The notes under the pieces are model-generated. The model did not search any database and had not been told where the DNA came from. It saw only the letters and a list, made by a program, of their open reading frames with translations. Positions 33,255-51,319 of a stretch of 64,000 bases of DNA are shown piece after piece. The stretch is from positions 14,759-78,758 of IMG/VR virus record IMGVR_UViG_3300024052_000085; one strand, written 5' to 3'. A program made the translations under genes and the position numbers. The stretch comes from a virus. Every line of letters begins with the position of its first letter. Position 1 is the first letter of the stretch.

Positions 33255-34153
33255 TGAGTATGAAATCTGAATACGGAGGTATTTTCGGAGTAATCAATCC
33301 TAGAGAACTTAATCGTCTCTATGAGTTACTGGATGTTTGCGGATCTATGGGATGGAAGATTGAAGAAGATCTTAGTATAGAAGACGAAACTGATAGAAGA
33401 TGGGATTATAATAGAAGATTAGAAGCAGGAAATCCTCAGTATCAATATGGTGGAGGACAATTTAGAGATCTAGCTCCTTTCGATTATTTAGAACTAGAGT
33501 ATGATGGTAACTTTCAATTAATGACAGTACCAGCTTTTAATACTTGGTTGAAGCAAGCGCGTAACTATGCCGCTAGATGGTTTAAACGTCTCCAGTCTAG
33601 ATATGCTCAGAAGATACAGTTAGCAGATACAAAAGGAAAAGTAAGAATGGCTGACTATAATAGAATGGAAATGTTGGAACATCATATCAAAGCAGTTAAG
33701 GATAAAGATGAAGCATATATAGAAAGAAGTGTACCTATGTATGATTCTAGTATAGAACCAGAAAGATATGCAGAATTCGAAAAGTATAAAGATCTTTATG
33801 ACTGGAAAAAAGATATAGACTGGGTACTTGGTCCTCAAGGACTATTACATACTGAAGATTCGGAAATAGAGATTGCTAGACAGAGTTGGATAGAAGGATT
33901 TAAGGAAATTTCAAAGTGTCTTCAAGATCTTACTAAAATTCAAAAGAATGTAGCTAGAAGATATAATCGTTGGTCTAGAAAAGATTTCAGATATACTGAA
34001 GATCCTACAGATCCCGACACTCCAGGGAAATTTTTTAACCCCGACTTTAGATATAATGTTTCCAGACGTCAGAGAGGCCTAACAGACAAAGAAGGTAAAT
34101 ACTTACATGACTGGAATCCAGATACAATGGAAAGCGGAGCGCAAGGATTATGA
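33254..34153 (+). CDS. Hypothetical protein
   Basis: N-terminal YGGIFG motif shared with 34980 and 35427. Confidence 0.65.
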   Translation: MSMKSEYGGIFGVINPRELNRLYELLDVCGSMGWKIEEDLSIEDETDRRWDYNRRLEAGNPQYQYGGGQFRDLAPFDYLELEYDGNFQLMTVPAFNTWLKQARNYAARWFKRLQSRYAQKIQLADTKGKVRMADYNRMEMLEHHIKAVKDKDEAYIERSVPMYDSSIEPERYAEFEKYKDLYDWKKDIDWVLGPQGLLHTEDSEIEIARQSWIEGFKEISKCLQDLTKIQKNVARRYNRWSRKDFRYTEDPTDPDTPGKFFNPDFRYNVSRRQRGLTDKEGKYLHDWNPDTMESGAQGL

Positions 34154-34980
34154 TTTCAATAATCATACCAGCATATAAAGAGTACGATAACTTAGTTACT
34201 CTTATTCCTGAAATACGTAAAACCCTTAATGGCGATCTACATGAAATAATTGTTGTAGATGACGATAGTAGGGATGGTACAGAAGGATTAGAGAATGCTA
34301 AGGTAATTGTTCGTAAGAACGAAAGAGGACTGTCGAGTGCTGTAATTAGAGGCATTAGAGAGTGTGAAACAGATGCTTTTGTAGTTATGGATGGAGATCA
34401 TCAACATCCCCCTTCAGTCCTTCCTTCTCTAACTAGAGCATTAGACAATCATAATTTGGTTGTAGGCTCTAGATATGTTGAAGACGGAGGAACTTCTGGT
34501 TGGACTCTAACGAGAAAGATAGTAAGTAGAATAGCTAGTTTAATGGGAAGACCTTTATGCGGTATTAGAGATTCTAGTTCAGGAATTTTTGGAACTTATA
34601 AATCGTTATTAAATATAGATAATCTTAACCCTATAGGATTTAAAATAGGTTTAGATATATACAACAAGTTACGCTATGAAAGTAAAACTGAAATACCTTA
34701 TATATTCAGTTCACGTAAACATGGAGATTCTAAATTCACTTCTAAACAGGTTAAGGAGTATCTAAAGCAACTATTTAACTTATACATAGATTTCTTTAAC
34801 CCTCGACAGTTAGGGAAGTATTGCTTGGTAGGTTCTCTTGGTGTAATTATCAACTTTGGTATTTTAATTGGATTAACAGAAGCCTTTGGATTTCATTATA
34901 TAGTATCTGAAATGTTTGCTATAGGCTTAGTACTTATATCGAACTTCATCTTAAATAAACATTGGACGTTTAAAGTATAA
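34150..34980 (+). CDS. Polyprenol-phosphate-mannose synthase-like GT2 fused to a GtrA domain
   Basis: IIIPAYKE, VVDDDSRDGT, RGLSSAV, MDGDHQHPP, GSRY, RKHGDSK; C-terminal CLVG..G..IN...NFILNKHWTF. Confidence 0.9.
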   Translation: MISIIIPAYKEYDNLVTLIPEIRKTLNGDLHEIIVVDDDSRDGTEGLENAKVIVRKNERGLSSAVIRGIRECETDAFVVMDGDHQHPPSVLPSLTRALDNHNLVVGSRYVEDGGTSGWTLTRKIVSRIASLMGRPLCGIRDSSSGIFGTYKSLLNIDNLNPIGFKIGLDIYNKLRYESKTEIPYIFSSRKHGDSKFTSKQVKEYLKQLFNLYIDFFNPRQLGKYCLVGSLGVIINFGILIGLTEAFGFHYIVSEMFAIGLVLISNFILNKHWTFKV

Positions 34981-35423
34981 TGGTAGGTAGAGATGCCTTC
35001 GGAGGTTTGTTTTCTGTTCTGACAAGATCAGAAGCTAGTTGGCTAGAAGATTACATTCGAGAGAATGCTGCTGAAGTATATGAGGATTATGAGGGACTAG
35101 CAAGTATGACTCTTAAAGACGTAATCCTGATGTTAAGCTTGGAAAATGAACAATTAGCTTACTCCATGAATGATAAAGAATGGAGAGAACAGTGGGATAA
35201 CGAGAGTCTAGGGCCTTTAGGTTCTGAAAACGTAGTTAAACCTTTTAGAGATAGAATAGCTGCATTTAGAGCTATGCTTATCGAAGGAATGAGGATTCAG
35301 AAAAAGCTTGAAGCATACGCTAAGAAACATGAAATAAGCTATAAGAAGATTAACTATAAACATTGGGGTCCTAAAGCTGATATGGATTATAATCCCAGAA
35401 ACTTTACAGAGGTGAACTTTTAA
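34980..35423 (+). CDS. Hypothetical protein (MVGRD family)
   Basis: MVGRDAFGGLFS. Confidence 0.65.
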   Translation: MVGRDAFGGLFSVLTRSEASWLEDYIRENAAEVYEDYEGLASMTLKDVILMLSLENEQLAYSMNDKEWREQWDNESLGPLGSENVVKPFRDRIAAFRAMLIEGMRIQKKLEAYAKKHEISYKKINYKHWGPKADMDYNPRNFTEVNF

Positions 35424-35426
35424 ATT

Positions 35427-49343: not shown

Positions 49344-49747
49344 TGTACTTATCAGAATTAAAACAAATAGCTTTAGAAAATGGTGAGAATAAATCAACGG
49401 TAACAAGAACCCTTGATACACTTCGAAGAAGTAGTATTCAATACATACTTGAACCTAAATACAGTATAAGAAGATCTCACAATTTTCGACACGGTGGATT
49501 TTCAATACATCCAGATGATCACGAACTTTATAAAAACCTTAGAAGAGATATAGAGCTAGGAAAAGCTGACGTTACTATAGATGAAATACTTGAAGAATGG
49601 CCAGAACCCTACGATAGATTAAAACTTCATAACTTTGGACCTCAAGCAGAAGCATTTTTCATGTATCTCCTAGAAAAGTATTATCAACCCTCTAGAGACC
49701 CTTATGCAAGTAGAGATACTTGGGGATATGGAGAATACGATATCTAA
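49343..49747 (+). CDS. Hypothetical protein, tandem paralog B
   Basis: LSEL..IAL..GE.K...LRR...FGP..E..FMYLLE.YYQPS.D.Y..RDT...GEYDI. Confidence 0.75.
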   Translation: MYLSELKQIALENGENKSTVTRTLDTLRRSSIQYILEPKYSIRRSHNFRHGGFSIHPDDHELYKNLRRDIELGKADVTIDEILEEWPEPYDRLKLHNFGPQAEAFFMYLLEKYYQPSRDPYASRDTWGYGEYDI

Positions 49748-50031
49748 TGGCTGGTAAAGAAATCTGGGACTTCCAAACTACGAAAGAAGGGGCAGACCAA
49801 GTTGAATCTGGTGCGTACCCTAAACTAACAGATGAAGAAACAGTTTGGGAAGAAGTTAATATCCTAAAACACATACATGCTGGATGGTTTACCGAAGATA
49901 TACTTAAAGAGCTAAACATGTCTTGGCAGAAAGATTATATACACTTTCGAAAACTAACCAGTCTTGGTTTAATAAAAACAAAAGAGCATTCTATGCCTTC
50001 AGCATTCAAAGATTTTGAGGTTCACTTTTAA
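49747..50031 (+). CDS. Permuted wHTH-like protein
   Basis: FQTTKEG...LTSLGLIK. Confidence 0.55.
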   Translation: MAGKEIWDFQTTKEGADQVESGAYPKLTDEETVWEEVNILKHIHAGWFTEDILKELNMSWQKDYIHFRKLTSLGLIKTKEHSMPSAFKDFEVHF

Positions 50032-50408
50032 TGAATAACTATCAAATAACGCCTAAAGGCGAAGACTTTGTAGAGGAATTTTATTCTCATTGGCAAGGAG
50101 CAGGAGATCCAGCAATAGCTATTACTTTTCTTTGGTGGTTAAGAGAGGATGGAGATTTTCAAAAACATTTCCAAGAAGTCTTAGAAAGATCAGACGAACA
50201 AAAAGCTATACAAATGGTTCAATGGGCCGTAGACAAAGGATACCTTGCAACTCTTACACCAACACGTGCTCAGATTGAGTATCTGTCATACATTAATAGT
50301 CCTCGAGCAAGGCATAGAGATCAACAATATCGAGACTACATCAAGAATTCTACTAAAGCACAAAAACTCTTGCTCGATAAATCAGTGCGAGATATAAAGC
50401 CTGAATGA
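50031..50408 (+). CDS. Permuted wHTH-like protein
   Basis: YQITPKG...AVDKGYL. Confidence 0.55.
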   Translation: MNNYQITPKGEDFVEEFYSHWQGAGDPAIAITFLWWLREDGDFQKHFQEVLERSDEQKAIQMVQWAVDKGYLATLTPTRAQIEYLSYINSPRARHRDQQYRDYIKNSTKAQKLLLDKSVRDIKPE

Positions 50409-51319
50409 GATATTTCGAAGACAAAGCTATTGATCCTCCTAAGAGAAAAGAAGTTCCTATAAAGAAGGAATCTAAACTCTTTGTAAGTGCAAGAAGAGTA
50501 CTTGCTCCCTTAATGAGACCTCTTATTGAGAGAGTACCTCTCTTTAGAATGCTTGTACTTAAGATGGTTAGCTCATCTCCTACTCAACAATTTAGAGGTT
50601 TGGAATACCAAGTACATCCTAAAGATTTAGGAGTTACTTTCGAATTAGCCTCTACTGGTAAATATGAAACATTAAGCTTAAACACTTTTCTTGATTCCAT
50701 ACAAATCGAAGACACAGTTATAGACGTTGGAGCTCATATAGGTTTGTATACAATTCCTTTATCTCAAAAAGTAGGTTACAGAGGTAAGGTAATAAGTTTT
50801 GAACCACATCCAGATAACTATGAATTATTAAAGAAGAATACTTCAACCCATAAATGTAGCAATGTTACCTTAATGAATGCAGCTCTTAGAAACTTCGAAG
50901 GTGAATCAGATCTTCTAGCTTCCGATTATAATACCGGAGATCACAGTTTCCACGGGCTAGGAAATAGAAAGTCTATCAAAGTACAATGTACTACCTTAGA
51001 CAATGTTATTAGCCCAGGAGAAAAAGTTTCAGCTATAAAAATAGATGTACAAGGTGGCGAAGCAGAAACTATTCAAGGAATGAAAAGAGTACTTTCAGAC
51101 AACCCAAGAATGACTATACTCTGGGAGCTATCACCTGAACAAATGGGTAAATTTGGATTCAGCCCTCTCGAATTTCTAAATTACTTACAATCAATAGGCT
51201 TTTACTCTAGTACAATAAATGAAGAATCTGGAGAGGTAGAACAAAGAGAACCTCAAGAGATTTTAGATAATTGTCCTAAGAGATCTTATGTTAATGTAAT
51301 ATCTAAAAGGTGGTTTTAG
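50405..51319 (+). CDS. FkbM-family methyltransferase
   Basis: IDVGAHIG.Y, FEP, NAAL, TTLD, IKIDVQGGE. Confidence 0.9.
   Translation: MRYFEDKAIDPPKRKEVPIKKESKLFVSARRVLAPLMRPLIERVPLFRMLVLKMVSSSPTQQFRGLEYQVHPKDLGVTFELASTGKYETLSLNTFLDSIQIEDTVIDVGAHIGLYTIPLSQKVGYRGKVISFEPHPDNYELLKKNTSTHKCSNVTLMNAALRNFEGESDLLASDYNTGDHSFHGLGNRKSIKVQCTTLDNVISPGEKVSAIKIDVQGGEAETIQGMKRVLSDNPRMTILWELSPEQMGKFGFSPLEFLNYLQSIGFYSSTINEESGEVEQREPQEILDNCPKRSYVNVISKRWF

Follow-up and report, generated by a model that had tools for sequence, protein, structure and literature searches.

We analyzed a 64,000-nucleotide stretch of viral DNA (positions 14,759 to 78,758 of IMG/VR virus record IMGVR_UViG_3300024052_000085; hereafter the window, to which all coordinates refer unless stated otherwise) and found that it encodes, on the plus strand, a small putative membrane glycosylation cassette. 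The cassette consists of a shortened glycosyltransferase of the dolichol-phosphate-mannose synthase (DPMS) type (GT2; 34150..34980, 276 amino acids (aa)), a membrane transferase of the DUF2723/TMEM260 (GT117) superfamily (GT-C; 38546..39958, 470 aa), and a 103-aa membrane protein (P0161; 39946..40257) that accompanies the transferase across related loci. We tentatively propose that these genes form a viral lipid-linked O-mannosylation pathway acting on the virus's own exported proteins, a reading that we place somewhat short of probable.

In the proposed pathway, the shortened GT2 would make polyprenol-phosphate-mannose from GDP-mannose at the cytoplasmic face of the membrane, the lipid-linked mannose would then be flipped across the host cytoplasmic membrane, and GT-C, which has the membrane core and a putative alpha/beta 'palm' on the luminal side but lacks TPR 'fingers', would transfer the mannose at the membrane's outer face. 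The three-helix P0161 may assist GT-C by serving as its subunit or by flipping the lipid-linked sugar, and a cupin of the phosphomannose-isomerase (PMI) type encoded downstream may supply mannose-6-phosphate toward GDP-mannose. The likeliest acceptors would be Ser and Thr residues in structural proteins that the virus itself encodes and that are exported by Sec or inserted into the membrane, namely a 2564-aa protein, two signal-peptide proteins of 368 and 441 aa, and a pair of small membrane hairpins. GT-C enzymes act at the outer face of the membrane, and a virus assembled wholly in the cytoplasm could therefore not use one on its virion. Because the particle of this virus appears to be built from exported and membrane-inserted proteins, self-glycosylation is mechanistically possible.

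Donor synthase and transferase

The synthase matches the Pfam family Glycos_transf_2 (4.6e-25) and then GtrA_DPMS_TM (3.8e-11), the latter only over positions 1-53 of 117, and the protein stops after the second helix. In a PDB sequence search, its residues 2-275 aligned with residues 25-309 of the Pyrococcus furiosus DPMS (5mlz; E 1.4e-54, 188.6 bits), and the alignment shows the DDD, DGD-QHPP, GSRYV, and NPIGFKI blocks; other solved enzymes matched far less well (ArnC, 7e-9; GtrB, 1e-4). The named homologues are DPMS of Thermococcus and Pyrococcus (40-42% identity, 99-100% coverage), and the NCBIfam matches are all to lipid-phosphate-sugar synthases (PgfS 6.3e-13, ArnC 1.1e-11, AglJ, and others), far under their equivalog cut-offs. 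An earlier, sequence-only reading of this DNA had described the protein as a polyprenol-phosphate-sugar synthase fused to GtrA. The synthase part of that description stands, but given the 5mlz match and the model positions covered, the 'GtrA' part is the first helix pair of the enzyme's own DPMS membrane domain and not a fused flippase. The four-helix C-terminal membrane domain of Pyrococcus DPMS is incomplete here, the second helix pair being absent throughout the viral clade. In the 20 clusters nearest to it, which all come from environmental contigs, the protein measures 275-281 aa, compared with ~350-370 aa for cellular homologues, and we thus consider the short form natural. By homology, the enzyme is predicted to use GDP-mannose, and mannose is the best-supported sugar, though not a proven one; it is likely because GT2 is of the DPMS type and a PMI-type cupin is co-conserved. 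No relative of GT2, and none of GT-C, was found in the viral contig collection.

The transferase (P0001) carries an SDSALF...GHPSPGYPLY stretch, and we placed it in its family with two alignments: a profile alignment of 14 close relatives (A1) and a wider family alignment of 95 sequences (A2). The latter excludes fragments and matches shorter than ~390 aa or longer than ~600 aa, and P0124, ignored as a tandem-repeat translation artefact, is absent from it. PF11028 (TMEM260-like) was matched by 12 of the 14 close relatives and by 71 of the 95 A2 members, only nine of the 95 also touching PMT_2; the orthologues in two metagenome loci, L016 (37.4 bits) and L013 (30.2 bits), exceed the PF11028 cut-off of 24.2 bits. 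Human TMEM260 (PDB 9rql) was the sole significant PDB sequence match for both profiles (A1, E 6.8e-5; A2, E 3.1e-21), with A2 profile positions 15-412 aligning to TMEM260 residues 31-478, into the luminal domain. A profile search of a large protein collection reached named bacterial 'DUF2723' and 'glycosyltransferase family 117' proteins, most of them with TPR. On the evidence of these relatives and profiles, we assign the window protein to the family, though its own sequence has no Pfam match; PHROG and NCBIfam gave none either.

An AlphaFold (AF2) model built with the 95-sequence alignment (pLDDT 91.3, pTM 0.91) predicts a polytopic GT-C fold. By VIA-align, the closest structures are the protein O-mannosyltransferases Pmt1-Pmt2 (Z 25.3, root-mean-square deviation 3.9, 333 aligned) and Pmt4 (Z 24.0). 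All 20 matches with Z of at least 11 are GT-C enzymes or of the GPI-transamidase PIG-U type, and the next match has Z 4.6. The best Foldseek matches are DPY19, STT3, ArnT, and PglB (E ~6e-4 to 1e-3); the 9rql coordinates did not appear among the fold-search matches. The DUF2723-type assignment, made in the sequence-only reading with the HP.PGYPLY motif, is borne out by the family comparison. The accessible text of a preprint (bioRxiv 10.64898/2026.03.17.711096) describes TMEM260 as a GT-C core with a luminal Rossmann-like 'palm', which holds the catalytic base D441, and TPR 'fingers'; it reports D52 and H67 as essential, their mutation inactivating the enzyme, and the TPR as necessary and sufficient for IPT peptide binding, via the IPT A-strand. 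In the A2 alignment, the residue aligned to D52 (D39) is invariant (95/95), and the one aligned to H67 (H54) is His in 64 of the 95 sequences and Gln in 19. The model also has an alpha/beta C-terminal domain (residues 343-470) after the last membrane helix.

A tblastn search of the phage collection gave no match to GT-C, and a genome-contig search with the single protein P0023 gave no related loci. Of the few viral proteins that match the GT-C model in fold, one is a 326-aa protein of a Nitrosopumilus spindle-shaped virus (E 2.6e-3, prob 1.00, TM 0.54 on the target). Two uncharacterised Nitrosopumilus spindle-shaped virus proteins in BFVD, A0A514K2W1 (326 aa, prob 1.00) and A0A514K300 (338 aa, prob 0.89), resemble the model and may be unrecognised membrane glycosyltransferases.

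Conserved gene order and candidate acceptors

The small protein P0161 has three predicted membrane helices, and the first 13 nt of its gene overlap the end of the GT-C gene. It matched no family in Pfam (E<=10), NCBIfam, or ESM Atlas, where its matches were to clusters without a name, and there was no GtrA match in Pfam or NCBIfam. To describe its linkage we used 20 metagenome loci that encode GT-C relatives (L001-L020). A P0161 homologue lies downstream of GT-C in 16 of these, which are all the loci with at least 32% GT-C identity that extend past the gene; the remaining four are L004, which stops inside GT-C, and L018-L020, which match GT-C only in part (27-30% identity). In L013, the homologue sits 1.3 kb downstream of GT-C. 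The pair of GT-C and P0161 is tandemly duplicated in five loci (L006, L008, L009, L010, and L012), suggesting two transferase specificities with one donor synthase feeding both. The duplicated GT-C copies are 41-52% identical to the window GT-C. P0161 is an obligate-looking partner of the transferase.

Seven loci (L002, L004, L010, L011, L014, L016, and L017) cover enough upstream sequence to show GT2, and each of them has it; it abuts GT-C in the most distant of them (L014, L016, and L017; ~32% identity). In the window, GT2 and GT-C stand 3.6 kb apart, and GT-C is separated from the cupin by 2.3 kb of unrelated open reading frames (ORFs); because GT2 abuts GT-C in the most distant relatives, we consider the GT2/GT-C spacing in the window to be secondary. 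In L016, genes for five proteins with a signal peptide or membrane anchor immediately precede the GT2/GT-C/P0161 trio, and two of these proteins are homologous to the 368-aa and 2564-aa proteins of the window.

The 2564-aa candidate acceptor (23516..31210, plus strand) has an N-terminal hydrophobic segment, an ectodomain, and C-terminal membrane helices. Ser and Thr make up 20% of it, compared with 10-15% in most other ORFs, which agrees with the Ser/Thr richness noted in the sequence-only reading. Homologues lie upstream of the cassette in L002, L011, and L016. The protein matched no Pfam or PHROG family, and a TGFb_propeptide match was dismissed as weak and under its cut-off. That reading had also pointed to an IPT/TIG-like segment in this protein (about 28550-28810), which we delimit as 28493..28855 (plus strand; residues ~1660-1780). 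ESM Atlas features agree, 21 of 30 matches being TIG clusters (score 0.94, 181 shared features), but there was no Pfam match at E<=1 with either a 121-aa or a 321-aa piece and no PDB sequence match. Because its support comes from language-model features, we treat the segment only as a lead. It occurs once in the protein and is the giant protein's best-conserved part, with 55% identity in L011 compared with 36% for the whole protein.

Directly upstream, two further candidate acceptors are encoded at 21101..23529 (plus strand). The 368-aa protein has a signal peptide, C-terminal membrane helices, and a homologue in L016, and the 441-aa protein has a signal peptide and 22% Ser+Thr. The last candidates are two near-identical tandem 66-aa hairpins (11281..11481 and 11530..11730, plus strand), putative coat proteins with two very hydrophobic helices connected by a QNTTGWS turn. 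Searches of Pfam and the PDB gave no significant match for them, and neither a similarity to His1 nor the coat role was confirmed. It is possible, though doubtful, that the coat is O-mannosylated in the host membrane before extrusion, at the QNTTGWS hairpin turn and on ectodomains of the anchored 2564-aa protein that are rich in Ser and Thr.

Virus type and neighbouring genes

The record comprises 78,758 bases, is classed as linear, and has a CheckV completeness estimate of 55%; genes on the plus strand occupy window positions 1 to ~59,960. Pfam and PHROG identify replication and nucleotide genes, including PolA with a uracil-DNA-glycosylase (UDG)-like N-terminus, an SNF2 helicase, a Sak4-like protein, DUF669, a Cas4-like nuclease, and a dUTPase. 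In the family A DNA polymerase (8610-11054), the N-terminal domain of the uracil-DNA-glycosylase superfamily is fused to the polymerase (PF03167, 7.8e-20, residues 22-163). Tailed-phage hallmark genes were not seen in the record. A PHROG scan of 87 ORFs in two batches (34 + 53) found no portal, capsid, or tail family among them, and its single weak terminase row is a P-loop match (E 6.3e-4) on a Zot-like ATPase (PF05707, 1.4e-8) located in the structural block. Pfam scans of the record showed no integrase or lysogeny genes. Two Sigma70_r4 proteins (5.1e-16 and 2e-7) and Shine-Dalgarno-like 4-mers upstream of 73 of 115 genes (compared with 19.5% of random windows) point to a bacterial host, which neither proves. 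The sigma-70 promoter scan (31 promoter-like sites, 42.7 expected) and the terminator scan (7 terminator-like sites, 6.5 expected) were uninformative, and scans of the window for Rfam families and tRNAs gave no matches.

Several other features of the record were seen along the way. Genes for 7-deazaguanine precursors lie at 3581-6065 and 55623-56036 (QueC 1.6e-55, a radical-SAM QueE-like protein, FolE 2.7e-55, and PTPS/QueD 8.9e-29), and a transglycosylase of the TGT/DpdA type was not detected with Pfam in the ORFs scanned. Record positions 1623-1738, 1.6 kb inside the left end, and 78643-78758 at the extreme right (window 63885-64000) form a perfect inverted repeat of 116 bases. A small minus-strand block at the right end includes a dual-specificity phosphatase domain (DSPc 9.2e-10, 62368-62919). 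A 2203-aa protein (11823-18434), with no family match or signal peptide, has a C-terminal low-complexity tract of Ser, Thr, and Ala and, after it, a tail rich in Lys.

Between the GT-C pair and the cupin lies the gene of an acidic, low-complexity 677-aa protein without a membrane helix (40482..42515, plus strand), whose stop overlaps the cupin start. It has no Pfam or PHROG match, and homologues stand downstream of GT-C at the matching position in L001, L002, L006, L011, and L012. The cupin itself (42515..42895, plus strand; 126 aa) is a stand-alone protein of the kind found at the C-terminus of type II phosphomannose isomerases. It matches PF01050 (1.9e-18, 67.2 bits, cut-off 23.6), upholding its sequence-only assignment as PMI-type, and corresponds to positions 358-467 of TIGR01479 GMP_PMI (1.5e-18), the nucleotidyltransferase half being absent. 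There is no PDB sequence match. Homologues occur in L001, L006, L011, and L012, the L011 copy matching PF01050 at 2.4e-23.

Directly upstream of GT-C, a 189-aa protein (37965..38534, plus strand) is a possible degenerate methyltransferase. Its Methyltransf_11 match reaches only E 0.13, and its L011 homologue (63% identity), which directly follows GT2, matches the same family at 1.6e-5. Further upstream is an HNH-like 126-aa protein (36634..37014, plus strand; phrog_2255 HNH, 7.3e-10). Homologues of it lie just upstream of GT-C in L001, L002, L004, L005, L006, L010, L011, and L013 (46-94% identity), and such a fixed place in eight relatives is unusual for a mobile homing endonuclease. A class I S-adenosylmethionine (SAM) methyltransferase (31257..31805, plus strand; Methyltransf_11 3e-7) directly follows the 2564-aa gene, and was not found at that position in L002 and L011. 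The FkbM methyltransferase predicted in the sequence-only reading (50405..51319, plus strand) is real, with matches to PF05050 (1.3e-20, 74.7 bits, cut-off 22.7), TIGR01444 (7.6e-31, 107.5 bits, cut-off 37.7), and phrog_8156 (7.9e-29). It lies 10 kb from the cassette, past ~17 ORFs, and none of the related loci spans that far. Its membership of the cassette is not supported.

Alternative explanations and comparison with known systems

A number of observations weigh against a pathway that mannosylates the virus's own proteins. The window GT-C has no Pfam match of its own even at E<=10. The position of TMEM260 R439-G440-D441 reads NKGF in the window GT-C, and is thus non-acidic in an alignment that is weak there; across the window's clade it reads NKGF or HKxF and in the wider family RGWE, likewise in a low-confidence alignment. 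GT-C lacks TPR, ending at residue 470 with no TPR Pfam match and no TPR helices in the model, whereas TPR families are present in bacterial relatives 570-930 aa long. Neither the TMEM260 sequon nor its GP-x2-[GA]GG-x2-[ST] core was found in any ORF of the genome. The sugar assignment draws on ~40% identity only, and no cupin is present in L013 and L017, both of which extend downstream. STT3 (Z 22.8) and the lipid A transferase ArnT (Z 22.6) score only ~2.5 under Pmt by VIA-align, which leaves room for a non-protein acceptor. What the analysis shows is the protein identities, the folds, and the conserved gene order; the functional steps, including the glycosylation of any protein, are all ones that we infer. 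Of the sequence-only claim of lipid-linked glycosylation of the virus's own virion proteins, the lipid-linked pathway is supported, with mannose as the likely sugar. That virion proteins would be its targets is made more plausible by the signal peptides or membrane anchors of the candidate acceptors, by the lack of tailed-phage genes in the record, and by the position of the cassette next to the structural genes even in a relative with 32% identity.

In the main rival reading, the cassette mannosylates a component of the host envelope (O-antigen, teichoic acid, capsule, S-layer, pilus, or another surface protein) and viral proteins are not its target, as in Gtr-like conversion. Its purpose would be to block superinfection or to prevent re-adsorption of released virions. 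A GT2, a GT-C, and a small membrane protein are also the architecture of phage GtrB/GtrC/GtrA; GT2 matches phrog_841, 'GtrB-like O-antigen conversion' (5.2e-23), and its best NCBIfam matches, PgfS and ArnC, are surface-modification synthases, if all far under cut-off. ArnT, moreover, modifies lipid A, and a protein of a temperate Oenococcus phage resembles the GT-C model in fold. However, GT2 is far nearer to DPMS than to GtrB in the PDB search, P0161 has no GtrA match, and the nearest GT-C relatives by both sequence and fold are protein O-mannosyltransferases. The record shows no integrase or lysogeny gene, and the cassette stays beside exported structural genes in a relative with 32% identity. 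We consider host-surface conversion a possible but less likely explanation, and favour O-mannosylation of viral proteins because of the exported structural proteins and the precedent of spindle-shaped viruses described below.

A closer functional equivalence to TMEM260, in which GT-C would recognise the IPT/TIG-like domain and O-mannosylate its B-strand and FkbM would methylate the mannose, is the least supported of these three readings, and we regard it as improbable. The TIG-like segment is conserved above the rest of its protein, there is Thr in its presumed B-strand (in the run GPLTLTLTG), and the FkbM gene is genuine. Yet TMEM260 needs its TPR for IPT binding, according to the accessible preprint text, and the viral enzyme has none; the sequon and core are missing from all ORFs, Pfam finds no TIG, there is a single TIG-like segment, and FkbM lies well away from the cassette behind unrelated ORFs. 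IPT-specific targeting, as suggested by the sequence-only reading, is accordingly not supported. It could also be argued that there is no system at all, only unrelated passenger genes in one 17-kb stretch, since GT2, GT-C, and the cupin are set apart in the window by unrelated ORFs that include the HNH-like gene. This was already disfavoured and seems very unlikely: GT2 adjoins GT-C in three distant loci, P0161 is kept in 16 loci and co-duplicated in five, and GT2 and GT-C are enzymes of types that belong to consecutive steps in one known kind of pathway.

That TMEM260 (GT117) is an enzyme was not recognised until 2023, and in the accessible text of that report its prokaryotic relatives are just 'distant homologs in bacteria' (PNAS 2023). 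This paper was the only one in which our literature search, with most subscription journals outside it, found 'DUF2723'; the same search, with the same limit, found no virus-encoded O-mannosyltransferase, no DPMS in a viral genome, and no GT-C virion glycosylation in phages. On phage-encoded GT-C, the matches listed contained only papers on host-cell-wall and DNA glycosylation. The enzymes described here are of known kinds. What is new is that a DPMS-type synthase, a TPR-less GT117-type transferase, and an obligate-looking small partner are combined, that a virus encodes this combination, and that it keeps a fixed position next to genes for exported structural proteins. With synthase, transferase, small partner, and candidate acceptors within one 20-kb stretch, the proposed pathway would be compact and self-contained and could be reconstituted in a bacterium. 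If O-mannosylation of viral proteins is true, it would give a concrete mechanism for surface decoration by a tail-less, membrane-assembling prokaryotic virus. Virion glycosylation as known in phages relies on cytoplasmic enzymes. Coat glycosylation in the membrane, if true, would be the first case of a virus encoding a GT-C system for protein glycosylation, and would give GT117 on the prokaryotic side its first functional setting.

Compared with known systems, the viral GT-C shares with human TMEM260 (CAZy GT117, PF11028, PDB 9rql) a homologous GT-C membrane core and the first-loop motif GDS..HP(P)GYPL(F/Y); in the model, a putatively luminal alpha/beta domain follows the last helix, as in TMEM260. 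It differs in being 470 aa instead of 707 aa long, in having no TPR and a non-acidic residue at the D441 position (in a weak alignment), and in having a dedicated 103-aa membrane partner and being encoded by a virus of a prokaryote. The viral GT2 aligns end to end with the catalytic domain and first helix pair of the Pyrococcus furiosus DPMS, but lacks the second helix pair and has 276 aa instead of ~350-370 aa. In actinobacterial Ppm1/Pmt protein O-mannosylation, a lipid-mannose synthase is coupled to a GT-C enzyme that acts on Sec-exported proteins. The virus has the same pairing of synthase and GT-C, with a transferase that is TMEM260-like and not of the PMT/GT39 type. Like the cassette, phage GtrA/GtrB/GtrC is encoded by a virus and combines a GT2 of the lipid-sugar-synthase kind with a polytopic transferase and a small protein of the membrane. 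Unlike in phage Gtr, however, the viral GT2 belongs to the DPMS type, and P0161, with three helices and without a match to GtrA, comes last in the cassette, after GT2 and then GT-C. The setting also differs: the neighbours of the cassette are genes of exported structural proteins, and no tailed-phage or lysogeny genes were seen in this virus.

The spindle-shaped archaeal viruses offer a further parallel. In the accessible text of one study, spindle-shaped viruses such as SSV1 have small two-helix hydrophobic coat proteins whose exposed hairpin turn can be glycosylated (PMC10866085), and the genome maps of NSV1 and His1 show glycosyltransferase genes of their own (PMC8491892). No lipid-linked mannose pathway for spindle viruses is described in the latter paper or in the accessible text of the former. 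The virus analyzed here is similar to these viruses in having two-helix hydrophobic proteins with a turn that may be exposed as well as its own glycosyltransferase genes; it differs from them in that its record spans 79 kb and its Sigma70_r4 proteins and Shine-Dalgarno-like motifs point to a bacterial host.

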